Shown here piece by piece: positions 28,171 to 42,358 of a DNA stretch of 64,000 bases. Both the position numbers and the translations under genes were made by a program. Source of the stretch: an uncultured Desulfospira sp. Lineage in GTDB: Bacteria; Desulfobacterota; Desulfobacteria; Desulfobacterales; Desulfobacteraceae. The stretch spans positions 4,064,001 through 4,128,000 of the forward strand of contig OY760175.1 of assembly GCA_963663165.1 (NCBI GenBank), in the 5' to 3' direction. The notes beneath the pieces are model-generated. The model was not told the DNA's origin, did not search any database, and was given only the letters and a program-made list of their open reading frames with translations. The number at the start of each line of letters is the position of its first letter. The first letter of the stretch is position 1.

Positions 28171-30246
28171 TCATCCCTCCGTGGCATGAACGCGGGACAA
28201 AAACGCCCCTACGGTCTTTCGCAGCACTTCCCCCTGGGAGGAAAGATTCCGTGCCGCATCGCCGATATTGTTGGAGGCGGCTTCAGAACGCTCCGCCGTT
28301 TCCTGGAGGCGTTGAATCTGAGTGGAGACATTCTGGGTCTGGGCCGCGGCCTGCTCAACATTACTGGCGATTTCGGATGTGGTGGCCCGCTGCTGTTCCA
28401 TGGCCTGGGCAATGAGCGCAGAAATGGCCTGGACCTGTTCTATGGTGGTGGAGACCTCGTTGATGGCCCCCACCGAGGCTTTGGTTGACGCCTGAATCAC
28501 GTCGATTTGCTCGGAAATCTTTTCAGTGGCCTGGGCGGTCTGGTGGGCAAGGCCCTTGACCTCGGCGGCCACAACGGCAAACCCTTTTCCGGCCTCACCG
28601 GCCCGTGCGGATTCAACGGTTGCGTTCAGGGCAAGGATATTGGTCTGGGCCGCGATTTCCTGAATCATGGCCACCAGTTTTGAAATCTGCCCCACATGGT
28701 CTTCTAAGATACGGATCTTTTCAGATGTGTTGGTGGCATCCTTGACCGCTTTGGTGGTTGATTCGGTGGCCTCGGCGACCTGGGATGCGATGTGGGCTAT
28801 GGATTCGGACATCTTTTCAGAGGCCCCGGCAACAGTGGTGACATTGCTGGACGTGGCCTCAGCGGAAACCGACACGGCAGAGGACTGCTGTTTGGTGTGC
28901 TGTGCAATGCTCTGCATTTCCGATGAGGTCTGCTGCATGGCCTTGTCGGCGCTGCCCAACCCGTCAAAAACCGACGCCATGGACTGTTCGAATTCCAGGA
29001 TATACTGCTCCCTTTCATTGTGCGCCTTTTCCTGTTTTTGGCGAAGCTGTTCAGCGGCAAAAAGGGCTTCGCGCATGTCGGAAAAACTGTCTTCAAGGGC
29101 AGACAGTTCAATAATTTTGGTGGCAGGCCTTCCGGACTGGCTGAAATCGCCGTTCCGGATTTTTTTGGCATCGTCGGCCAGATGCTTGACCCGCTTGGCC
29201 AGGCGCTGGCTAAAGTACATCATCAAAGGGACAAAAACCACCAGGCTGGCCAGAATAATAAAGAAAATTTTCTGCTGCATGTCTCTGTAAATACGGGTAA
29301 AATCTGATTTTGGAGCCGCAATCCCACTTTTAAAGCCAGGGCCGTCGTGGAGCAGTTCCCGGCCTGCCGAATAAAAATCGTCTTTTTTGGAAGCATCAAA
29401 CAGGGATTTCACTGCCTCGGACGGGACCTTGGCCGCATCGCTTAACAGCGGCACCTCTTTAAAGGTTTCGGGCAGGGCCAGAATCCGATTTTTGCTGTCA
29501 TAGATAAACACCACACTGTTTTCAGATAATTTCTGTTCAGATACATATTGGCTTAAACCGGAAAGGGTTACGTCCACCCCAACCACACCGGTTTTGTCCA
29601 TTAAGGTATGAGATGCGGTAATCCCGGGCTGCTGAAGGGAATTAAACATATACACATCGGACAACGCCGCCCCGCTGCCCGATGTGGCCGCCTCATACCA
29701 GGGGCGCTTTCGTGGATCATACCCCGGCGCGGGCTCGGTGTGGGCCTTGAGCAGATTCTTTTGATCATCCAGGAATGACCAGCTTTGGGTCCGGCTGCCC
29801 CGGGGCTCGCTATAGATGGTCCGGACAATCCAGGCGGCATTTTGAGGGGCCTGATGTTTATCTAACACCGCGGCATGGCCCCTTGTGGCGATAATCTGAT
29901 AAAAACTGCCGTCGTCATGTCCGATGTATATGGAATATATAGACGGGTATTCCGCCAGGGCCTTGAAAATCTGATGCCGGACAGGAGCATCCAGTCCCCC
30001 GTCCCGGGGTTTTTCAATTAACTGGTGGTGGGCAATCATCCCGGACAGTTTCAGGGGGACATCAATGAGGTTATTCACCTGGGTCTGGATTTTGGAGGCG
30101 GTTGTACCGAAAATGTTGTGGGCAACTTCATCGGCTGCTTTCTTACCGATCAGCCACTGGGCAATTAAAATGGTGCCGGACAGCAGTCCGATAATCACCA
30201 GACTACTTACGATTAAAGCGGTTCTGAATTGAAAGCGCATAATCAT
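28171..30246 (-). CDS. methyl-accepting chemotaxis protein with Cache and HAMP domains
   Basis: YDPRKRPWY Cache motif; [30 protein letters not shown] signalling hairpin. Confidence 0.93.
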
Positions 30247-30465
30247 CCTGTTTTTTTATTTGATTGTCATTAATTGAGAGAAATTGCGATATAGTATATC
30301 GTTAAAGGCCGGTTTAGAAAAGTCTCTTTTGCATTTTTCTACATGAACTGCTTTAAAGTGGATGAAACTAACGGCCCACAGCCTGAAAGTGATTGGCTGG
30401 CAGTTTTTGAACTGTGCCAGCCGGCTAACAGCTAATGGCTAATGGCCAAAAAAAGGAACACGAGA

Positions 30466-31935
30466 ATGCTCAAAAAAGAATTGAAAATTTATTTTATGGT
30501 GCTTGGACTAGTCCTTCTTTGCACCATACCCCCCTATGCCCGGGAACTGCCGGTGACCGGGTCCATGGACACCCGGGTGGGAAAGCTTGCCTTTGAAGAA
30601 GGGTACCCTTCAGCCCAAACTGTTGAAACGCTTTATGATGAGCTGGGCTTCCAGCGGGCGGTCCAGGCCTATCTGTGGGCCGTTCCCCTGGTGGGATTTG
30701 CCCGGTGGCAGGAACAGCACGAACAGGTATTCGGTGCCAGAGACGGGGATGTGGTCTATTATGTCAGTTACAAGGACAAGCTTGGCCTGCTGACATCCAA
30801 TGCCACCACCCCTTATATCATCGGCATGGCCAACCTTGCCCGGTCCGGCCCCCTGGTCATTGACTTTCCTGCCGGTGACACCTCCGGCGGCATCATGGAT
30901 TTCTGGCAGCGGCCCATTGCGGACATGGGACTGGCCGGCCCGGACAAGGGGGCCGGGGCCCGGTATCTGATTCTCGGCCCGGGCCAGTCGGTCAAGGATA
31001 CAAACGGATATACGGTCATCCAATCTTCCATGAACAATATCTTTCACGCCTTCAGGGTCATTTCAACAGACCCGGATGAGGCCGAAAAGCTGCGCCGGGG
31101 GTATCAGGTCTACCCTTACAGCACCAGGGACACCCCGAGACCCACAAAAATTGTAACCCCGGACGGCAGACACTGGGAAGGGTGGCATCCCGGCGGCCTG
31201 GAGTACTGGAAACTGGTCGCCAAAATGGTGAACCAGGAACCGGTTCATGACCGGGACCGCATCATGGTGGCCACCTTAAAGCCTTTAGGGATTGAAAAGG
31301 GAACGCCATTTAATCCTGATGACCGCCAGACAAAGATTCTTGAAGAGGCAACCCTGGTCGGCGAGTCCATGGCCCGGTGCTTAAGTTATGCCAAGCGGCA
31401 GAAAGAGGCCGGAATCTGGCCTGGCACCCATTGGAAAAACGCCGTTCTTCTGGAGGCTGACCAGGAAACCGACAATTACACGGCACTGGACGAACGGACC
31501 GCCTGGTTCTACGAGGCCGTGACCCTGACCGCCGGCATGACCAGCAAAACCCCGGGAAAGGGCCAGGCCTATATCGGTGTTCAGAAAAGCCGTGACGGCC
31601 AATGGCTCAAAGGGGAACATGCCTATACCCTCCATGTCCCGGCCAATGCGCCGGTAGAGCAGTTCTGGGCCATGACCCTTTATGACACCCAAACCCGCTG
31701 CTTTATTGAAAATGAGTACGAGATTGCCGGCCTTGATTCCCGGTCCGATCTGATCAAAAACCAGGACGGGTCCGTGGACCTGTACTTTGGCCCCAAGGCC
31801 CCTGAAGGAAAAGAGAAAAACTGGATCCCCACGGTCCCGGGAAAGGGATGGTTTGGCTACTTCCGGTTTTATGCGCCCACCAGGGCATATTTTGACAGAT
31901 CCTGGCAGCTGCCGGATATTGTAAAACAACATTGA
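30466..31935 (+). CDS. exported DUF1254/DUF1214 protein
   Basis: Signal peptide; RAVQAYLWAVP, TSNATTPY, FWAMTLYD, NWIPT...RFYAP. Confidence 0.85.
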   Translation: MLKKELKIYFMVLGLVLLCTIPPYARELPVTGSMDTRVGKLAFEEGYPSAQTVETLYDELGFQRAVQAYLWAVPLVGFARWQEQHEQVFGARDGDVVYYVSYKDKLGLLTSNATTPYIIGMANLARSGPLVIDFPAGDTSGGIMDFWQRPIADMGLAGPDKGAGARYLILGPGQSVKDTNGYTVIQSSMNNIFHAFRVISTDPDEAEKLRRGYQVYPYSTRDTPRPTKIVTPDGRHWEGWHPGGLEYWKLVAKMVNQEPVHDRDRIMVATLKPLGIEKGTPFNPDDRQTKILEEATLVGESMARCLSYAKRQKEAGIWPGTHWKNAVLLEADQETDNYTALDERTAWFYEAVTLTAGMTSKTPGKGQAYIGVQKSRDGQWLKGEHAYTLHVPANAPVEQFWAMTLYDTQTRCFIENEYEIAGLDSRSDLIKNQDGSVDLYFGPKAPEGKEKNWIPTVPGKGWFGYFRFYAPTRAYFDRSWQLPDIVKQH

Positions 31936-31961
31936 TACAGACAAACCGCACAGGAGAAATC

Positions 31962-33317
31962 ATGAAAAAAACACTGGCAGCCGTTCTGTTGTTTGCAGGG
32001 CTTTGCCTGGCTGGCACAGCAATGGCGGCAACAAATGCAGCGGATGTAACCACCATTGCCAAAGAGGCTTTTATTTACGCCTATCCCATGCTGTACAACT
32101 ACAAAACCATGGCCGAACAGACCCAGGAATCGTTTTCATCAGCCTATATCGGGGGCTTTGGCCGTTTCAGGCATTATTCCAAAACCTATACCCCCGATGA
32201 TACGGATATTGTGACCCCCAACAATGACACCCCCTATTCATGGGCCTGGCTTGATTTAAGAAGGGAGCCGTGGGTTTTAAAAGTTCCCGCACTGCCCAAA
32301 GACCGGTACAATGTGTTCCAGTGGTTTGATCTGTATACCCACAACTTTGCCTATGTGGGGGTCCGCGCCACCGGTTATGAGGCCGGCACCTACCTTTTTG
32401 CAGGACCCCACTGGGAAGGAACGGTGCCGGAAGGGATCACCAAAGTCTTCCGGTCTGAGAGCGATATCATCGGCACCCTGACCCGGACCGGCACCAACGG
32501 GCCGGTCAGAGAACTGCAACAGCAGTACGGGCTTTTGCCCTTGAGCGAGTTTGCCGGCGGACGCCCGCCAATGCCTGCGCCGGCTGTCCACTGGCCGGTC
32601 TGGAATGAAAAAACGGCCTTGTCCGCCAATTTTATTTCCTATCTTAACTTTCTGCTGGGGTTTACCAGGCCCCATGAATCGGAAAAAGTGCTGCTTTCCC
32701 GCTTTGGGGCCATCGGCATCGGCCCGAACCGCCCCTTTAACCCGGCCGCCCTGTCCGAAGACACCCGCAACGCCATTGAAGAGGGGGTAAAACTAGGCTT
32801 AAAAAAGCTTGAGGAAGAGGCTGCCAAACTCAAAGGGTCTTCCGGGCTTTTCGGAACCAGGGAATTTTTAAAAAATGATTACACCAAAAGGGCTTTGGGG
32901 GCCATGGTCGGCATTTACGGCAATTCCCTGGAAGAGGCCTACTATGCCTCGCCAACCAGAGACAACAACGGCAATCCACTGGACGGCAACCACCAATATG
33001 AACTTCGGTTTGAAAAGGGGAACCTGCCCCCGGTCAAGCTTTTCTGGTCTTTTACCATGTACCGGCTTCCCGAACGGCTCCTGGCGGCCAATGAAATCAA
33101 CCGGTACTCCATCGGAGACCGAACCGATGGCCTTATAACAGCCAAAGACGGCTCATTGACCATCTATATTCAATCCACCCCGCCGGATGGCGACAAAAAG
33201 GCCAACTGGCTTCCTTCGCCAAAGGGGCCCTTTTCTATCATCGGCCGGTTTTACGGCCCGGACCCGTCCCTCATCGACGGCACGTATAAGATGCCGGTAC
33301 CCCGGCTTATCAAATAA
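31962..33317 (+). CDS. exported DUF1254/DUF1214 protein
   Basis: Signal peptide MKKTLAAVLL; TPNNDTPYSWAWLDL, FWSFTMY, NWLPSP...RFYGP. Confidence 0.87.
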   Translation: MKKTLAAVLLFAGLCLAGTAMAATNAADVTTIAKEAFIYAYPMLYNYKTMAEQTQESFSSAYIGGFGRFRHYSKTYTPDDTDIVTPNNDTPYSWAWLDLRREPWVLKVPALPKDRYNVFQWFDLYTHNFAYVGVRATGYEAGTYLFAGPHWEGTVPEGITKVFRSESDIIGTLTRTGTNGPVRELQQQYGLLPLSEFAGGRPPMPAPAVHWPVWNEKTALSANFISYLNFLLGFTRPHESEKVLLSRFGAIGIGPNRPFNPAALSEDTRNAIEEGVKLGLKKLEEEAAKLKGSSGLFGTREFLKNDYTKRALGAMVGIYGNSLEEAYYASPTRDNNGNPLDGNHQYELRFEKGNLPPVKLFWSFTMYRLPERLLAANEINRYSIGDRTDGLITAKDGSLTIYIQSTPPDGDKKANWLPSPKGPFSIIGRFYGPDPSLIDGTYKMPVPRLIK

Positions 33318-33425
33318 CGGTCATACCCTTAATGAAACTGAAGATGCCGGCAACGGCAGGCTATAAATTGGGCACCACAGGTGCTTCGCCCTCTTGTCTC
33401 TTGTTTCTTGTCTCCAGTTTCTTAT

Positions 33426-33460
33426 AAAAAACGCCCCGGACAGCCGCAGCCGCCCGGGGC
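33426..33460. terminator. probable intrinsic terminator between convergent genes
   Basis: A-run followed by the imperfect stem GCCCCGG...CCGGGGC. Confidence 0.55.
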
Positions 33461-33482
33461 TCTTAGTTATGTCACGGCCTGA

Positions 33483-35870
33483 TTACTGAAGCAGGGTTGT
33501 GATGTTTTCAGTGGATGCATTGGCCTGGGCAAGGGCATAGGAACTGGTCTGCGCCAGGAGTGACAGTTTAGCATAAGTGGCCGTTTCCTCGGCAAAGTCC
33601 ACATCTCTCAAAGTCGATTCAGAGGCCTGGACATTGGTCTTGGTTACGGTCATGTTTGAAATGGAAGAGGAAAGCTGGTTCTGTACCGACCCCAGAGAAC
33701 TCCGGGTGGCGTCCAGATCTGCCAGGGCAGCCTCTGCAATCTCAATGGCAATGGTGGCATCCGCCTGGGTCAGAACGCTCAGGTCCGCCAGGGTCAGGCT
33801 CTCCTGGCCGGAAATGGTGACGCTTCCCTCGTCGGTATCAATGACCAGCTCCGAACCGGCGGCAATGACACTTTTAGCCTCCAGGGTCATATCATCGGAC
33901 AAGGTAACATTATTTGAGAGGGTAACATCCTCTGTAATTTCAGAACCGGCGGTGATGGTAAAGTCAGATCCGCCGTTGATGTTGACCACCATATCCTGCT
34001 GTACCGTGGTTCCGCTCTCCAGTACGGTTCCCTTTGCCAGGGTGGTCCCGGCGGCAAGGTCCATATCCTCAGACAGGGTGGTCTGGGTAACATTAACCGT
34101 GCCCTCAATGGCCGAATCCTCCGCCAGTGTCGAAGCCGACATGATGGTTGAGCCCACTGCCACGTCCATATCTTCCGTGGTAATGAGGTTGGCGTTGAGT
34201 GTGGTGGTGTCCCCAAGGGTGGAACCGGCTGTCAGGGTTGATCCGGTAAAAATGGTTGACCCGTCCTCAAGGGTCATCTCTTCAGCCATGGTAACGTCAT
34301 CACTGATGGTGAAGTCCGCCCCGAGTTCCGTACCGGCGGCCAGAATGGAACCGGTGGCAATGGTGGTGTCATCGGACAGGGTCATGTCCGAGGTGACAAT
34401 CAGATCATTGGACAAGGAGACATCGGCCGTCAGGGTGCTTCCGGCGTCATAGGACTGAGAACCGCTTGTAAAGCTGACCGTGAGTACGGTGCCGGCACCA
34501 AGGGTTGTTCCGGAATTAAGGGTTGAACCGGCCGTAACCGTCATCTCCTCATCCAGGGCTGTGGCGGCCTTGCCGACTTCAATGTCCCCTGTAATGGTCG
34601 TTCCTTCGGACAGTACGGAACCGCTTTTCAAAATAGAGCCGGCCGCAAGCTCATAATCGCCCTCTGTGTCGGTTATCTTATCAACCGTGGCCGTCCCCCC
34701 AAGAACCGTGTCCGCCGTTAGAACCGTATCCGTGACCAGGGTGGATTCGTCGGCCACTGTGGTGGTGTCGGCGGTGATCATCTTGGCATTCAAGACGATT
34801 TTGTCCTCTGTCCCCCCCGAGGTGGTGGTGCTGATGTTAAAGCTGCTGGAACCTTCCTGGGTCAGGGTGATATACCCGATGGTGGACAGATCTTCAGCTG
34901 ACTGGTCACCAAAAACGTCACCGGTGTCGCCGGTAACATAAATGGCCCGGCCGTCTTCCGAGGTGAGGGTCAGGGTGCCATTGTCTTCAATGGCGGCAGA
35001 CACGCCGGTTTCCGTGGTCTTGTCATTGATGGCCGTGACCAGGGCCGCATCGGAATCGTTGTCTTCCACGTTGATGGCGCCGATGACCACACCGTTAATG
35101 GAAAAGTCGGATCCGGTGCTCCCTTCCTGAATGGCTTCTTCGGTGGTGCTTTCCACCACGGCCGTGGCGCTGATGCCGGTCAGATAGGTCACGGAGTTGA
35201 TCTCGTCGGCCAGGGCGCCCATACCGTTTTCGGCATCGTTGTTTTGCAAAATTTCAATGGTTTCCAGTTCCACTTCCTCCCCGTCAATGGCCGAGGTAAT
35301 GGTCAGGGCCACGACACCACCTTCTTCGTCGTCCAGCTCCAGGGTAGCTGTTGAAATGTGGCCGGTCTGGGTGGACTCACAAGAGCCGACGCTGATGGTA
35401 GCGGTATCGTCGGAAGTGGAGCCGGTCTGAATGGTCTTATTGGTAAAGGCACCGTTCAGGAGCTGCTGCCCGTTGTAGGACGTGGTTTTGGCAATGGTAT
35501 CCAGTTCCTCCAGCAGCTTATCGATATCCTCCTGGATGGCAGAGCGGGTATCGGTTGTCTGGGTGTCGGAAGCCGCCTGGATGGCCTTTGTCTTAATGGT
35601 ATTCACAATGCTGATAGACTCTTCCAAGGCACCGTCGGCTGTCTGGACGATAGAAACGCCGTCATTGGCGTTCTGGATGCCCTGCCCGAGTCCCAGATAC
35701 TGGGACTTGAGAGAGTCGGCAATGGTCATACCGGATGCATCATCGGCTGCCCTGTTGATTCTCAGACCCGTGGACAGCCTTTCAAGAGATGAAGACATCG
35801 CGGTATCGTTGCTGAGCATGTTCCGATGGGCGGTCAGTGCGGCTACATTGGTGTTAATACTTAATGACAT
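33483..35870 (-). CDS. fliC: flagellin with a large repetitive central domain (~795 aa)
   Basis: MSLSINTNVAAL...LSTGLRINRAADDASG N-terminus; RSSLGSVQNQL...SESTLRDVDFAEE...AQAN C-terminus; GGAGG RBS. Confidence 0.95.
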   Translation of the reverse strand: MSLSINTNVAALTAHRNMLSNDTAMSSSLERLSTGLRINRAADDASGMTIADSLKSQYLGLGQGIQNANDGVSIVQTADGALEESISIVNTIKTKAIQAASDTQTTDTRSAIQEDIDKLLEELDTIAKTTSYNGQQLLNGAFTNKTIQTGSTSDDTATISVGSCESTQTGHISTATLELDDEEGGVVALTITSAIDGEEVELETIEILQNNDAENGMGALADEINSVTYLTGISATAVVESTTEEAIQEGSTGSDFSINGVVIGAINVEDNDSDAALVTAINDKTTETGVSAAIEDNGTLTLTSEDGRAIYVTGDTGDVFGDQSAEDLSTIGYITLTQEGSSSFNISTTTSGGTEDKIVLNAKMITADTTTVADESTLVTDTVLTADTVLGGTATVDKITDTEGDYELAAGSILKSGSVLSEGTTITGDIEVGKAATALDEEMTVTAGSTLNSGTTLGAGTVLTVSFTSGSQSYDAGSTLTADVSLSNDLIVTSDMTLSDDTTIATGSILAAGTELGADFTISDDVTMAEEMTLEDGSTIFTGSTLTAGSTLGDTTTLNANLITTEDMDVAVGSTIMSASTLAEDSAIEGTVNVTQTTLSEDMDLAAGTTLAKGTVLESGTTVQQDMVVNINGGSDFTITAGSEITEDVTLSNNVTLSDDMTLEAKSVIAAGSELVIDTDEGSVTISGQESLTLADLSVLTQADATIAIEIAEAALADLDATRSSLGSVQNQLSSSISNMTVTKTNVQASESTLRDVDFAEETATYAKLSLLAQTSSYALAQANASTENITTLLQ

Positions 35871-36007
35871 GTGTTTCCTCCTTGATAAAGTTAAGGGTGG
35901 CGGCATCAGTGCCTGCTCACCTTGTGGCACACCGGGTATACATGGTGTGCGCCTGGGCTTGGTTTCGGCGGGGGCCAGCCGCCCGGATCAATCCGCTGTT
36001 AGCTTTC

Positions 36008-36035
36008 GTATCGCAAGAAAACTAGTGGACCTTTA
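36008..36035 (-). promoter_or_regulatory. putative sigma28 (FliA) promoter
   Basis: TAAAG-N15-TGCGATAC on the minus strand, about 140 bp upstream of the flagellin start; imperfect match to TAAA-N15-GCCGATAA. Confidence 0.5.
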
Positions 36036-36267
36036 GGAGTTAAAACGCGCCGTTATCCCTCCCACAGAAAAAGTCTCAACAGATTGGTTTTTGAATGTTA
36101 TTTAACGAAACTGACGAGGGTTAAGTTTTTCTAGAAAACAATCAAGTGAGATTTATCGTCAAAATAATTTTTGGTTTTTTCAAGAAATCAACATAGGGCT
36201 TGGCCGGGAGCCGGTGTTTGGACGCAGACGGGTGGCTTTGTGAGCTGAGGCTCCTCTATCGAGCCGT

Positions 36268-37206
36268 TCAAACACCAAAACCAGCGGCACGGATTTGTGG
36301 CTTCTGCCTGAAACTGTTGGGAAAATGGGTATAATGGAGTTCCAAAGCCTCCCAGGGGGTTTTTTGCTTTAATGCCCCTAAAGGAAACCGGGTGTTGTAC
36401 CGGGAAATGTATTTTTTAAACTCGTCATTGGAAGACCAGGGCAGTTCCCATCCCGTTGTTTTTCCTTTGGCCCTAAGGCCGGCAAGAGACTGGGCAAGTT
36501 TGCTGACAGCCTTGGGATACGGGATGTCCATATGAAACGCAGAAAGCCTGAATGACCGGCACAGATGTTCAACGGCAAAGGTGTGTTGCTGAGCATCAGC
36601 ATTCTCCAATGTCAGGTCAATGGGGTCTGTGTAAATGATCCCCAATACCCTTAACGGAAGGGACTGAACCTGCTGTGACAAAAAATCGGTTACAGAGTCT
36701 GAAAAACCGGCATGAAAGGTTTTAAAGGTGCAGTCCAGAAGGGTATGAAAAAGAACAGGCTCTCCTTTTTCAAAAAAAGAGGGCAGTTGAAAGCAGTTAT
36801 AGCAAAGATAGGACCCGGCGTAATCAGACAGGTCTACCGGGACAGCATGCTTCAGGGAGGGCAGCCGGGAAATGGCATACCGTTTCAGGCACCGGTTCAG
36901 GCTGGCCCTTGAGCAGTTAATATCCAGAAAAGACTGGGCCATGCGGTGCAAATCATCAAGCCCTGCCCGTGTGGACAGGCGGCACAGGACAATCTTGATT
37001 TCTTCCATGGGGGCCAGGGCGGTGGTGACTTTTTTGGGGGCATGAGACCGGTCAAATACTTCGGTACGGTTCCGCCACCTTCTGATGGTGGTTTTGCTTA
37101 CCCCGGTCATTTCTGCCAGAGCGGCGGTACTCAGGTTGGGATTGCTCTGGATAAAAGCCCGCTGGGCCGGTGTGGTGGTCGCGTTTTTATGGAGATGTAT
37201 TTTCAT
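36268..37206 (-). CDS. IS481-family transposase-derived protein with degenerate DDE triad
   Basis: MKIHLHKNATTTPAQR...GVSKTTIRRWR HTH, SRASLNRCLKRYAISRLP, YNTRFPLGALKQKTP. The catalytic HID and NGxVER motifs appear replaced. Confidence 0.75.
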   Translation of the reverse strand: MKIHLHKNATTTPAQRAFIQSNPNLSTAALAEMTGVSKTTIRRWRNRTEVFDRSHAPKKVTTALAPMEEIKIVLCRLSTRAGLDDLHRMAQSFLDINCSRASLNRCLKRYAISRLPSLKHAVPVDLSDYAGSYLCYNCFQLPSFFEKGEPVLFHTLLDCTFKTFHAGFSDSVTDFLSQQVQSLPLRVLGIIYTDPIDLTLENADAQQHTFAVEHLCRSFRLSAFHMDIPYPKAVSKLAQSLAGLRAKGKTTGWELPWSSNDEFKKYISRYNTRFPLGALKQKTPWEALELHYTHFPNSFRQKPQIRAAGFGV

Positions 37207-37611
37207 TGTGTCACCTGATGTCTCTTTTTGTTTCCCGGCCTTTGGCATTTCCTTCAAATAAAAAAATCACCAAAACACCGCTTTCCTGTCATTATCAGGG
37301 CACAAACCATACCTAAGATTAAAACATAATAATTTCAGTTTGTTACAATCCACACTTTTGCTATGGAGTAATTTATATTATCCTATAGAGTAAGTTTTGG
37401 TTAAGTTACCCCATAGGGTAAAAATAGGGTAAAATTACAGCGGTAAACAAATTAGCGCGGGTTTTTGCAACGTTGTCCGTTATTCTATATTGAGGGGAAT
37501 CCAGAACGGCCACGGACCGTCCGAATTCCCGCGCAATGATCTGCTTAAAACAACTATTATGTTTTAATACAGACGGTTAGTTGAGTGCTTTATGCAAACA
37601 AGGAGGTAAAA

Positions 37612-38028
37612 ATGGAATGCAAGGACGCATTAAAGGCCATGGGGGCCTGGATGGACAACGAACTTTCCAAAGAAGAATCCACTGTTCTAAAACAGCATAT
37701 TTCCCAATGCGCGGAATGTGCTGCTGAAGCAGAAAATTTACAGGAACTGATAGCCGCCTTAAACCGGATTTGCCCTGAAGATCCTCCCCATGGGCTGATG
37801 GAAAAAACCCTTTACCGGTATGAGCAGGCCATAACACCCCGGGCAAAAGAGACATGGCAGGGACAAACCGGATGGATCAGAAAAATAGGGCTTGCGGCCG
37901 GAAGCATGGCCGGCTTGTGGGCCGGGTCTATGCTGGGAATGCGGCTGGTGTCTGCCCAGACGTTCTCTCCCCTGGACCTTATGGCAGCCCTTTGTTTTTC
38001 AGGAGGTCTGGCATCATTATGGGCATAG
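37612..38028 (+). CDS. zf-HC2 anti-sigma factor
   Basis: MECKD...HISQCAEC (HxxxCxxC) plus a C-terminal TM segment; AGGAGG RBS. Confidence 0.85.
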   Translation: MECKDALKAMGAWMDNELSKEESTVLKQHISQCAECAAEAENLQELIAALNRICPEDPPHGLMEKTLYRYEQAITPRAKETWQGQTGWIRKIGLAAGSMAGLWAGSMLGMRLVSAQTFSPLDLMAALCFSGGLASLWA

Positions 38029-38507
38029 CACCGTTGAAAAAAGGACTCTGGTTCCTGCTGGCCTTCTCCGTTGCCCTGAATATCGGGTTCATTATCACGG
38101 TAACGACCCACAAAAGCCCCGGTCCCATGGGATTTCCGAAAAAAGCCCCGCTGCCGCCGTTCTTGCCCGGGATCCCGGCTTTAGAACAGATGGGCCTGCC
38201 CCATGATGTCAGAACAAAAGCAACTGAGGCCATCCACCGGCTGGTAGACGCCCATGGCCAAATGATGTCCCAGATCTGGCTTAAAGAGGATAAACTGCTG
38301 GAGTTAATTGGCCGGCCAGGCCCCCTGGATAAAAACAGCCTTGAAACAAACAGCCGTGAAATCGTTCAGATTCTGGATCGGAACATCCGTGATAAAGCGG
38401 AATATTTTATCGAAATCAGAAACCTGATCGGGCCTGAAAAAAGTGAATATTTTTTTTCCAAAGTGCGTGAACAGTTTAAACAGGGCATGATGAGAGAAAG
38501 GCATTAA
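38019..38507 (+). CDS. periplasmic Spy/CpxP-like (heavy-metal sensor type) protein
   Basis: LAFSVALNIGF membrane anchor followed by a helical domain; lies between the anti-sigma and the ECF sigma. Confidence 0.7.
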   Translation: MGIAPLKKGLWFLLAFSVALNIGFIITVTTHKSPGPMGFPKKAPLPPFLPGIPALEQMGLPHDVRTKATEAIHRLVDAHGQMMSQIWLKEDKLLELIGRPGPLDKNSLETNSREIVQILDRNIRDKAEYFIEIRNLIGPEKSEYFFSKVREQFKQGMMRERH

Positions 38508-38509
38508 GC

Positions 38510-39055
38510 TTGGATCTTTCCCGCTCCTATAAACAAAAAACCGACGTTGACCTGATCAGCCGCATCCATAAGGGGGATAAAAAGGCCTTTAAAGAAATTC
38601 TGGTCCGGTACCAGAGCGGGGTATACGGATTTGCCTTTTCCCTTTTAAGCGACCCCCATGAAGCCGAGGACATTTCCCAGGAAGTTTTTTTAAGGCTTTA
38701 CCGAAAGGCCCGGTCCTACCGGGCCTACACCTCCCTGCGCACCTATCTGTTCCATATCACCCGAAACCTGTGCATTGACCATTTGCGCAAAAAACGCCCG
38801 GAAACCATGCCTGACCCGCCTGAGCCAATCTGTGCCCGGACCCCTTACAGCCATCTGTGTGACTCGGAACTCAGAAGAAAGATTGACGGGTTGATCTCAA
38901 GCCTGCCCGAAAACCAGGGAACGGCCATCTACCTTCGCCATGTCCAGGGAATGAACTACCAGGAAATTGCCCAGACCTTAGGAGTGACCGTCCGGGCTGT
39001 TGAATCCCTTCTCAGCCGGGCCAGGCGAACTTTTCGCAGTCGGTTCAGGTCTTAG
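38510..39055 (+). CDS. ECF RNA polymerase sigma factor
   Basis: AEDISQEVFL, TYLFHITRNLCIDHLRK, YQEIAQTLG...VESLLSRAR. Confidence 0.92.
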   Translation: MDLSRSYKQKTDVDLISRIHKGDKKAFKEILVRYQSGVYGFAFSLLSDPHEAEDISQEVFLRLYRKARSYRAYTSLRTYLFHITRNLCIDHLRKKRPETMPDPPEPICARTPYSHLCDSELRRKIDGLISSLPENQGTAIYLRHVQGMNYQEIAQTLGVTVRAVESLLSRARRTFRSRFRS

Positions 39056-39229
39056 AAGCACAACCCTTTCTAACATACTGTTTTCGAAACATATATTAAT
39101 CAAATTTTCTTTCCCGGCGCAAATGAATTTCGCTAAATGTGAACTAAATGACATCATTTTTATAGAAGGTTTTTCCCAATTTAACCGTTATTTTATATAG
39201 AAAAGCCGGATGCGATAGCGGTTTTGTTT

Positions 39230-39279
39230 TTTTTGCAAGGACACTCATGGCTGATTTTTGCAAGGACACTCATGGCTGA
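39230..39279 (+). repeat. perfect 25-bp tandem duplication spanning the RBS and start codon
   Basis: TTTTTGCAAGGACACTCATGGCTGA x2. Confidence 0.9.
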
Positions 39280-40345
39280 CAGGAAATTAGAAGACATAGC
39301 GGTAATCGGGGCCAACCACGGGCTTTCAACGGTGTTGAAACAGGTGGGGCAGGTCGCCCGGCTGGACACCTCTGTTCTGCTGTTAGGGGAAACCGGCGTC
39401 GGCAAAGGCCTGATAGCCGCCCTGATTCACAACATGTCTTTGAGGATCCAAGGCCCTTTTATCACCGTTAACTGCGGCGCCATCCCGGATACCCTCCTGG
39501 ACAGTGAGCTTTTCGGCCATGAAAAAGGCGCCTTTACCGGTGCCGTTTTAAAAAAACAGGGCCGGTTTGAACGGGCCAATAATGGAACCCTGTTCCTGGA
39601 TGAAATCGCGGAACTGCCCCTTTCCGCCCAGGTCCGGCTGCTCAATGTCCTTCAAAACCGGGAAATTGAACGTGTGGGCGGCAGTTCTTTTGTTTCCCTG
39701 AATATACGGGTCATTTCCGCCACCAACAAAGACCTGGAATCCATGGTGGGTTCGGGCAGGTTTAGAAAAGATCTCTGGTTTCGCCTCAATGTGTTTCCCA
39801 TTCAAATTCCGCCCTTGCGCCACCGAAAAGAGGATATCCCGGATCTGACCAGCCATTTTATCCGGAAGACCGCAGAAAAACTGAAACTGGACCCCATCCC
39901 CCGGATCGGCCAGAATGCCCTTGAACAGCTAATGGCTTACCACTGGCCGGGAAATGTCCGGGAACTTGAAAACATGGTGGAACGGGCCATGATCTGCTGC
40001 AAATGGGGCCAGCTGGACTTTACCGGCATCCTGCCCCAGTTCGTCCCAATTCCGGGGACCCCGGTGGATGACGAGTCTATGGCCTTTTACAACCGGATTG
40101 CCGCCGTGCATGACATTTCCCAGGTGGTGGCTGTCGGCGCCGGACCTGAAAAATCCTTTCTGAGCCTGAACCAGGTAAACCGGATCCATATTTCCAATGC
40201 CCTTGCCTCAGCCAAAGGAAAAATAAACGGACCGGGAGGCGCGGCCCAGCTTCTGCAAATCCACCCCAACACCCTTCGAAAACGGATGGACCGGCTCGGC
40301 ATTCAGTACGGAAAAAAACGGGCCCGGTCCATGAGCCGGTCCTGA
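39272..40345 (+). CDS. sigma54-dependent activator (AAA+ and Fis HTH) lacking an N-terminal sensory domain
   Basis: [47 protein letters not shown]. Confidence 0.9.
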
Positions 40346-40410
40346 TAATCCCCCCTTTTACAAGGTCTTCCAAAAAAAATCAGGTGTGGGATTAAAGTTA
40401 ATCAATAAAA

Positions 40411-40797
40411 TGGGCTTGGGATATGGGACTTGGGGATTGCAGCGTCCGTGGCCTCCCCAAGTCCCAAGCCGGTAGTTAGCATGGCCCCGTTTGATTTACC
40501 CCTCACAAACAACATGTTATATGGACAATGGTGGGCAACGCTTTAAAAAAATTCTCGCAAAGGCGCAACGGCGCAAAGCTTAACTTCCCTTGGGCAAATA
40601 GTATTCTTTGCGCCTTAGCGCCTTTGCGTGAGAATATAAAAAAAGAGGGCGAAGCCCTCAATTTTAGGATGACAGAGTAAGGAGAAAAGCATTCCATACA
40701 TTGAGAACCTCTTGCTACCCCACATCCCAAGTCTCAACAATATACATTATATTCCCTACCATCAAAATCAACATCGCCTGCCGGCAGGTTACATGCC
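40411..40797. repeat. composite intergenic repeat: GGGACTT-heptamer element interrupted by an octamer (GCGCAAAG) hairpin
   Basis: 40411-40470 and 40721-40797 match the two halves of the element at 44600-44745. The insert includes the inverted repeat 40551-40635 (attctcgcaaaggcgcaacggcgcaaag / ctttgcgccttagcgcctttgcgtgagaat). Confidence 0.7.
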
Positions 40798-40807
40798 CCT
40801 GTCGTCC

Positions 40808-42358
40808 TTAGGCCGGTACCTTGACCGACGGAAATCGTGACCGGTCCGTGTGGGGATAAAACTTGGCCCCGGAAAACATGTTCATGAATTCCTGGTTCAC
40901 ATTCAGCTCAATATAGGTGATGGACTGCCGGATCTCCATGATCCGGTCAAAGGCTTCGGCCTCTTTCAGCAGACGGATTGCCCCGCCTAAAGATGAATTG
41001 CCCAGGACTTCAAAGGCGGACCGGTCAATATCGGGCAGCATGCCGATGCCGATGGCTGATTCCGGATCGATAAAAGAGCCGAATGTTCCGGCCACGTAGA
41101 ATTTTGCCAGATCTTCGAATTCCAGGCCGGCCGTGTTCCGGACGATCACCTCAAGAATGGTGTACATGGCGGCCTTGGAGGATGTCAGGGAATTTAAGTC
41201 CACCTGGCTTAGGGCAATGGGGCTGCCCGTGCCGGAATCTTCGGCATCCACCAAAATATAAGAGGCAATCCCGTCGATCTCCTTGAGCCGGTCTTTGCAG
41301 CCTGTTGGATCAAATTTCCCCCGGATATCAATCATCCCCCCCGTGAAAAAAGCCGCAGCCAGATCAATCATGCCCGAACCGCAGATGCCCACCGGGGGTT
41401 TTTCTTCAATGGTATGGATTTTAAGGCCGCCGCTCTCCGGATCAAAGGCTACCCGGTCAATGACGCCGGGCCCGGCAGTCATGCCCATCCGGGACACCCC
41501 GCCCTCCAGGGCCGGGCCGGCCGCGCCGGCACAAGCCATGAGCCAGTCTTTGCTGCCCACCACAATTTCCGCGTTGGTGCCCACATCCACCATAATACAG
41601 GGGGCGTCCTTTTTATCCAGGTCAGCATATAAAATCCCGGCCAGCAGATCCCCGCCAAAATAAGAGCCGATATTGGGAAACAAAAAGGCCAGGCCGTCCG
41701 GGTGGATATCCAGGCCCAGATTTGCGGCCCGGAAGGTATCCGGGATATTGACACAGGGGATATACGGCTCCCGGATGATTTCAAAGGCCTCAATGCCCAA
41801 AAACAGATGGGTCATGGCCGTGTTTCCGGCACCGGCCACCAGGAAAATATCGGTCTGCTCCACGCCGTGATCCTTGCACAGGGCACAAAGATGGAAATTG
41901 ACCGCCTGGATCACCAGATTCCGGAGATCGGCCAGCCCCCCTTCCCGGTGGGAGTGGTGAATTCTGGCCAGGACATCCGGCCCGATGGCGGCCTGGGGAT
42001 TGTCAAGCCCCACCTGGCCCAGTTCCTGTCCGGTTTCCAGGTCCAGCAGGGAGATCACGATCCGGGTGGTGCCGATATCAATGGCCGCCCCTAACACAGG
42101 GGTTTGCTTTTCGGGATCCAGCAGGTCCACCAGGCGCCAGGAGCGGCGGTCCCGGAACAGTACGGCCCTGGCCTTAAATCCCCATGCCCGCAGCCTTGAG
42201 GGCAGATTGGTCAGCACATGCCACGGGATTTTGACCTGGGAGGCCCCCAGTTCCTTTTTCAAGGCCTGTTCCAGCCTTAAATCATCGGCAACATTATTGC
42301 CCAGCACGGGTTTTTCTATTTCAATATGACGGATATATCCGTTTGATAGCGCTGTCAT
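40808..42358 (-). CDS. ASKHA-domain RACo-like corrinoid activation protein (no N-terminal 2Fe-2S domain)
   Basis: AIDIGTT, YFGGDL, VDVGTNAEI, AAGPALEG, GICGSG, AGTFG, GNSSL. Confidence 0.88.
   Translation of the reverse strand: MTALSNGYIRHIEIEKPVLGNNVADDLRLEQALKKELGASQVKIPWHVLTNLPSRLRAWGFKARAVLFRDRRSWRLVDLLDPEKQTPVLGAAIDIGTTRIVISLLDLETGQELGQVGLDNPQAAIGPDVLARIHHSHREGGLADLRNLVIQAVNFHLCALCKDHGVEQTDIFLVAGAGNTAMTHLFLGIEAFEIIREPYIPCVNIPDTFRAANLGLDIHPDGLAFLFPNIGSYFGGDLLAGILYADLDKKDAPCIMVDVGTNAEIVVGSKDWLMACAGAAGPALEGGVSRMGMTAGPGVIDRVAFDPESGGLKIHTIEEKPPVGICGSGMIDLAAAFFTGGMIDIRGKFDPTGCKDRLKEIDGIASYILVDAEDSGTGSPIALSQVDLNSLTSSKAAMYTILEVIVRNTAGLEFEDLAKFYVAGTFGSFIDPESAIGIGMLPDIDRSAFEVLGNSSLGGAIRLLKEAEAFDRIMEIRQSITYIELNVNQEFMNMFSGAKFYPHTDRSRFPSVKVPA

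Follow-up and report, generated by a model that had tools for sequence, protein, structure and literature searches.

The window, a stretch of 64,000 nucleotides from the genome of an uncultured Desulfospira sp. (G000), carries on its reverse strand a gene for a 312-amino-acid protein, here called X (P0001), which is followed after 397 bp by a co-oriented gene for a flagellin of 795 amino acids. An earlier reading of the letters alone (the sequence-only reading) had described an unbroken frame of about 312 codons and a flagellin gene about 400 bp downstream, and both descriptions hold. The features of the locus are as follows.

37612..40345, (+): divergent genes for an anti-sigma factor, a small membrane protein, an ECF sigma factor and a sigma54-type activator; possible rival binders.
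36268..37206, (-): gene for X, a catalytically dead IS481-derived protein; unbroken ORF of 312 codons; pLDDT of the model 88.
36862..37206, (-): X residues 1-115, N-terminal arm and two helix-turn-helix (HTH) modules; column identity 0.79 and 0.71; dN/dS 0.13.
36469..36816, (-): X residues 131-246, core of RNase H/integrase type that retains its fold without the catalytic set; dN/dS 0.32.
36135..36154, (-): distal box, 119 bp before the -35 element begins; best site in the genome by a matrix trained without G000 and G001.
36071..36090, (+): proximal box, in the opposite orientation to the distal box and 55 bp before the -35 element; second-best site by the same matrix.
36009..36035, (-): sigma28 (FliA)-type promoter of the flagellin gene, TAAAG-N17-CGATA, by consensus match only.
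33483..35870, (-): flagellin of a second (accessory) hook-filament set, 795 amino acids; PF00669, PF00700.

Judged by profile comparison, X is a derivative of an IS481 (ISKpn27-type) transposase. Its profile aligned end to end with that of 14 DDE-intact relatives over 312 columns (hhalign; probability 100, E 3.7e-57), which bears out the complete IS481 layout described from the letters. X shares length, domain order and integrase core with active IS481 enzymes (ISKpn27-type; NF033577; L048-L129, L198-L270), together with the HxNAxTTP arm, the two HTH modules and the YN...TP tail. The NCBIfam IS481 model NF033577 matched residues 23-160 with 67 bits, under its cut-off of 224, and a Pfam search of X returned HTH families only and no rve domain. 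Residues 1-115 are the most conserved part and probably the DNA-binding region; they are 46-49% identical to four active transposases, and the core is 16-20% identical to active cores. The best matches of the structural model were IstA and retroviral integrases (IstA 8b4h, E 3e-8), and it superimposed on integrase cores with Z about 9 and an rmsd of about 3 Å over 120-140 residues. A homodimer prediction scored 0.00 and carries no weight either way. One family member, P0097 (462 amino acids), has about 146 additional N-terminal residues.

The active site was compared in an alignment of 74 of the 94 homologues, the other 20 being short or near-duplicate. The D1 column is Asn137 in X and acidic in none of the 74; the NGxxE (NGxVER) motif is likewise present in 0/74, Glu at any single column around the E position occurs in at most 18/74, and residues 234-241 of X contain no Glu. 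The loss of D1 and E proposed earlier is thus confirmed. The alignments divide on the suggestion that a YTD motif may preserve D2: four pairwise global alignments set Asp194, which is kept in 60/74 homologues, on D2, whereas MAFFT and hhalign set Thr193 there and Asp194 opposite the following Asn, which makes the D2 of X ambiguous in these alignments. DDE chemistry depends on a two-metal site that needs its acidic set, and with D1 and E gone this site cannot form. Excerpts of PMC10045372 give terminal inverted repeats with TGT...ACA as the end signature of IS481. A TGT-anchored terminal repeat is absent from both strands of 35901-37600, as had been noted, and the C-terminal PG.D peptide, which the right repeat encodes in active elements, was found in 0/74 homologues. 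X also differs from active IS481 in being single-copy (in a genome of 6.74 Mb), in its fixed neighbourhood and in forming a long-stemmed clade of its own.

The 94 homologues share 35-88% identity, those with names coming from Desulfospira, Desulfobacter, Desulfobacula and Desulforapulum, and their source annotation is HTH protein or transposase only; the 74 aligned ones measure 304-353 amino acids. The X profile matched 29 of the 161 genomes of the family and, elsewhere in the class, none of 316 genomes of other families, and 77 of the 106 flagellated genomes of the family are without X. One match was found in 25/29 genomes, one genome has a split copy and three have two distant paralogues; split genome copies are those of G137 and G101 (C76), and short metagenome copies are L196 and L197. 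Among 95 of 435 pairs (Nei-Gojobori; dS under 1.5, the remaining 340 having a dS of 1.5 or more or being saturated, and the two split genome copies being excluded), dN/dS was below 1 in every case, with a range of 0.16-0.58 and a median of 0.23; by part it was 0.13 for residues 1-115 and 0.32 for the core. The family has therefore been under purifying selection after its catalytic loss, most strongly on the DNA-binding half. With the triad lost, a single copy and dN/dS below 1 in 95/95 pairs, the pattern of domestication recognised by the sequence-only reading is upheld.

In a careful 35-row tree the members of the X family form a single clade (100/100) with a long stem, in which flagellin-linked X is nested (100/100) and X linked to EF-hand genes lies outside. 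A quick-search tree of 95 rows agrees, and neither tree resolves the sister group of X among active elements; any order of events within the family would be a reading of this topology. DDE-intact relatives occur in 4 of 301 genomes of the phylum, as partial matches without usable ends, and none was found in the present genome. Other DDE-defective proteins among the distant matches group within active elements and hence represent losses separate from that of X. Full-length DDE-defective IS481 proteins outside the X family are P0115, P0125, P0147, P0127, P0113, P0138, P0158, P0165 and P0204. These are possibly separate domestications, and P0115, P0125, P0147 and P0127 cluster together in the 95-row tree.

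All profile matches in family genomes together give 32 X loci, at which the next gene is a flagellin gene (21 loci), an EF-hand gene (7), a convergent flgL (2) or another gene (2). The expectation of a single copy in synteny with flagellin therefore holds for the copy number and for 21/32 loci, and fails at the 11/32 with another neighbour. X lies 258-623 bp from the flagellin gene across the 21 loci. This arrangement would fit regulation of flagellin by X; the link is not universal across loci. Outlying X genes precede the gene for an EF-hand protein (for example L030:1977-2627, and in G006, G072, G101, G117, G150 and G155), with a two-component pair next in G107 and G101; several of these spacers share a conserved GAAAGNAGGTGATGYNTATG motif. 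A flagellar-type promoter before X was found in none of 30 of the 31 loci searched, the remaining one (G072) having a sigma54-like match. A sigma70/terminator scan found no terminator between X and the flagellin gene, counts being near chance.

The flagellin belongs to a second set of hook and filament genes. In G002, G089, G096, G155 and G181, X and the flagellin gene end a cluster of fliD, flgD, flgE, flgN, flgK, flgL and fliC. The present genome has two sets of these genes and a single flhA, fliF and fliA, and we infer that the second set supplies exposed parts for one basal body. The accessory set is split here: fliC accompanies X at 4.10 Mb, and the other genes of the set are found 1.58 Mb away, at 5.67 Mb. 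Accessory-type fliD occurs in 21/161 genomes, all with an X of the fliC clade; G022 is the sole fliC-clade genome without it, and 12 genomes of genus g3 yielded no other fliD. The variable region of the flagellin contains beta-helix-like repeats (LbH/hexapeptide families, below cut-off), and its relatives measure 790-1440 amino acids, one (G120) reaching 2011. The 5' leader of the flagellin gene (35871-36000, reverse strand) contains several conserved ACGGA/GGA motifs in small hairpins, which we take to be the pattern expected of CsrA-type control; the folding of the leader as a whole is not above that of shuffled sequences (z -0.14). Between the flagellin gene and a gene for a large sensor kinase, window positions 28171-33317 hold a chemoreceptor-like gene and two DUF1254/DUF1214 genes; G001 is without this block, and no box precedes these genes.

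Upstream of the accessory flagellin promoters we found a conserved box, AARTMTCA-NNN-GATTRGTT. The sequence-only reading had placed the promoter at 36008-36035, and a promoter that matches the sigma28-type consensus does lie at 36009-36035; the same type of pattern precedes the flagellin ATG by 162-200 bp in 20/20 spacers. A box at -115 to -119 from the -35 element occurs in 21/21 X-linked flagellin promoters, a count that is not independent because the matrix was trained on 20 of them; a second, inverted box at -54/-55 is found in 9/21 and a single box in 12/21. Two further promoters were outside the training. At a threshold of 11 bits or more, 19 of 20 accessory fliD promoters have a box, 15 of them at -106 to -108 or -44/-45, and paired fliD boxes are 62-63 bp apart. 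The flgD promoters of fliC-clade genomes have one 61-63 bp before the GG of a GGYAY-N5-TTG element in 19/21 (two duplicate fliD rows were dropped from the fliD/flgD comparison). This element resembles the Geobacter sigma54 consensus TTGGCACGGTTTTTGCT, as it appears in the excerpted text of PMC2725144, and differs from it at the -12 C, where it has G or A. With a matrix trained without G000 and G001, the flagellar promoters of the present genome rank 1-4, 11, 14 and 20 in 6.74 Mb, the fliD and flgD boxes lying 1.58 Mb from X.

The box follows X across genomes. Flagellar genes of 24 of the 132 X-lacking genomes have no box (0/29 flagellin and 0/24 fliD genes, together 0/53), nor does main-set fliD in fliC-clade genomes (0/10), against a background of 0.9% of 800 upstream windows. 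Other flagellins of fliC-clade genomes match in 5/16; three of the five (G000, G001, G089) have the box in the corresponding position upstream of the second flagellin in the main-set tandem, and a like-sized tandem flagellin of X-lacking G086 has none. The box-plus-promoter pattern occurs in 21/161 genomes, all X-bearing, and in 0/132 others; the paired-box pattern occurs in 8/161, all X-bearing and each match at an accessory fliC or fliD promoter, with 0 for its reversed control and 0/132 in X-lacking genomes. All these box and promoter counts overstate independence because the genomes are kin. G022 has lost accessory fliC and fliD but still has X, together with a flgD box of 24.7 bits some 47 kb from it, and G001 has lost about 140 bp of the spacer with the box retained. 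A second target suggested earlier, 37380-37450, holds no box, and none precedes X in the present genome. In outlying lineages a box was seen at 0/8 flagellins and 1/7 fliD promoters, and downstream of X at one (G072) of the seven EF-hand-linked loci. The proposal that flagellin is the target is hence supported by the box at its promoter and was too narrow, since it had missed the box itself as well as the fliD and flgD promoters.

The box resembles the ends of active IS481 elements. The ends of active relatives read TGT-NNN-RTCCCG-NNN-GATYR (56 distinct; for this set no end pair came from 14 of the 81 active loci, and L067 was unused), and those of a second active subgroup TGTT-TGGTCCCGGRDGATTGGTT (37 distinct). 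The box aligns with the inner part of these ISKpn27-type terminal repeats, minus the terminal TGT, in the same register and with the same right half-site; its left half-site is shifted by C-to-T and G-to-A changes. Matrices built from the ends only placed the box at a median rank of about 4 and 7 of some 630 windows, and column-shuffled matrices with any register allowed did as well in 4/300 and 0/500 trials. The end-only matrices put the box first in only 1/20 and 3/20 spacers and genome-wide rank the seven flagellar boxes 1,441 to 418,857 of 13.5 million windows, which indicates that the match has drifted. By these matrices, then, the likeness is genuine, with drift chiefly affecting the left half-site. 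Scored in turn with the box matrix, the left end of DDE-intact L202 reaches 13.7 bits.

In 8/10 outlying loci the ATG of X is preceded, at 34-49 bp and on the strand expected of a left end, by a box closer to the element ends (RTCYCA-NNN-GATTG), which is the best of about 870 windows in 6/8 under an end-only matrix. In the complete genome G082 the strict end-like pattern occurs twice, before X and before fliD; G150 has it once, before X, G107 has one match elsewhere, and G006 and G117 have none. TGT precedes 0/8 of the boxes upstream of X and, among flagellin-promoter boxes, only two, in the related genomes G155 and G181. G082 (L035) also has a strongly end-like 20-mer (24.1 bits, end-only matrix), located 406 bp before X and close to a divergent gene that looks like a regulator.

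Taken together, these sequence comparisons favour, at a probability of about 0.7, the reading that X is a domesticated transposase which binds end-derived boxes and regulates the accessory hook-filament set. The two HTH modules of X would read the box as the ancestral enzyme read the element end. Two facing boxes 62-64 bp apart, or six helical turns, could be held together by X in the manner of a paired-end complex, with the dead core serving as a scaffold; we infer such bridging from the facing orientation and the six-turn spacing, and the 12/21 flagellin promoters with one box show that it is not required. The sign of control is suggested by general promoter geometry: the boxes lie wholly upstream of the promoters, are helically phased and never overlap them, so that activation or architectural help is modestly favoured over occlusion or repression. 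The proximal box is 45 or 54 bp, one helical turn apart, before the sigma28 -35 element and 62 bp before the sigma54-like GG; at the latter, flgD promoter, X could not replace an AAA+ activator and would only assist or block one. The box just before the start of X in outlying lineages suggests that autoregulation came first and that flagellar promoters were recruited later.

A serious alternative, which we nevertheless consider unlikely, is that the box serves a different flagellar regulator, one that came with the accessory set, X adjoining flagellin by linkage and having been domesticated for a different job or only regulating itself. X and the accessory set are co-inherited almost perfectly and never apart in a way that would tell the two readings from each other, so any unlinked factor distributed alike would produce this pattern too. 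The ECF sigma factor and sigma54-type activator that flank X in several genomes, the only two neighbours tested as alternative binders, are obvious candidates, and the flgD promoter is of a type that needs an AAA+ activator according to the excerpted text of PMC2725144. Yet the genes at 37612..40345 accompany X in some genomes only, an ECF sigma orthologue was found in none of the 4 box-bearing g3 genomes tested, and the activator has no clear orthologue there, its best matches being at paralogue level (50-55%, vs 66% for the linked copy). The mapped accessory clusters share no other regulator, and main-set promoters are without the box. A host factor would be expected neither to use a site that matches the end of X's ancestor nor to have one before X in lineages without the accessory set.

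Quite improbable, in our view, is a role of X in immunity or inhibition, in which it would occupy the ends of IS481 elements that invade the cell, the boxes being relics of old miniature insertions that play no part in transcription. The close identity of the DNA-binding half to active enzymes would fit, facing boxes do resemble a tiny element, and in G155 and G181 one box has TGT where the terminus would be. Relics would drift, however, and the boxes keep their spacing within 1-3 bp at three different promoters, with no conservation of the DNA between paired boxes; the box has itself diverged from present-day ends, and the DDE-intact relatives to be warded off occur in very few genomes of the phylum and not in the present one. 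Residual recombinase activity that inverts or excises the DNA between paired boxes, as in Hin-like flagellar phase variation, has very little to commend it: the inverted box pairs, the integrase fold and the conserved Asp194 are set against a D1 that is never acidic, a missing E motif, boxes without a TGT cleavage end and the single-box promoters, and because the promoter lies outside the box pair, inversion would not flip it. Least credible of all is an ordinary decaying IS481 copy still open by chance, for although the annotation and a few split copies would allow it, the size and even length of the family, its single long-stemmed clade, the lack of element ends and above all the dN/dS values contradict decay. 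We likewise found neither multiple copies with inverted repeats nor an intact DDE set nor a lack of orthologues and synteny.

Compared with known systems, X is neither an active IS481 transposase nor a TldR, and it parallels TldR in its target. TldR proteins are nuclease-dead, TnpB-derived repressors with flagellin-associated clades among them (PMC10705468, in the sections retrieved). By the same sections, X is like TldR in being transposon-derived and having a dead nuclease beside flagellin, in host cells with alternative exposed flagellar parts for one basal body. TldR goes back to a RuvC nuclease guided by RNA, works with a guide RNA and represses a target by occupying it (PMC10705468, same sections), whereas X has a DDE transposase origin and an integrase-type fold and is expected to recognise the DNA itself, at boxes upstream of its own gene set. 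Window positions 33000-41000 gave no Rfam match near gathering score.

The conversion of a transposase into a transcription factor with end-derived sites is a standard idea for eukaryotes. FAR1 and FHY3 are reportedly transcription factors derived from MULEs, and SETMAR with Hsmar1 ends is said to be another such case. The AtMu1 transposase acts as an activator, according to the available part of bioRxiv 10.64898/2026.08.24.746577. X resembles such eukaryotic factors, so far as that part describes them, in its selected DNA-binding region and in end-derived sites used as regulatory elements; they differ in transposase superfamily and chromatin setting, and X is unfused, bacterial and has sites phased with sigma28- and sigma54-type promoters. 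As described in excerpts of PMC8987985, Hin and Ner/SfsB are also mobile-element proteins recruited to host regulation, Hin at flagellin, but unlike X the former is an active serine recombinase and the latter was already a regulator; these excerpts name no DDE transposase turned regulator, and the review contains 'IS481' 0 times. Within open-licence PMC and bioRxiv, subscription journals being outside this scope, we found no description of an IS481-derived regulator or of the X family, nor of a whole DDE transposase with its own operator set in bacteria; TnpB-derived TldR was found there.

A fuller reading would be the joint domestication of a bacterial DDE transposase with its terminal repeat, as transcription factor and operator that now activate a whole exchangeable hook-filament-cap set. 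As it also includes the single basal body, the bridging of two boxes and the same distance from sigma28 and sigma54 promoters, we hold it tentatively and at rather less than even odds. If it were true, X would be a core flagellar regulator in the 12 g3 genomes. Both halves, protein and candidate operator, are visible with intermediate states, namely the box before the gene itself and the more end-like fliD box of G082, which makes the evolutionary path directly testable with one protein and a 100-bp fragment. The findings also suggest that sulfate reducers possess a second, regulated set of exposed flagellar parts, in parallel to TldR-driven flagellar remodelling.

Just 3' of the X stop codon (about window 36220-36280) lies a sequence of ~55 bp that recurs elsewhere in the genome with 85-90% identity, at about 5,291,200, 3,655,900 and 3,213,100 of G000:C1 and other places, and is probably a small repeat element.
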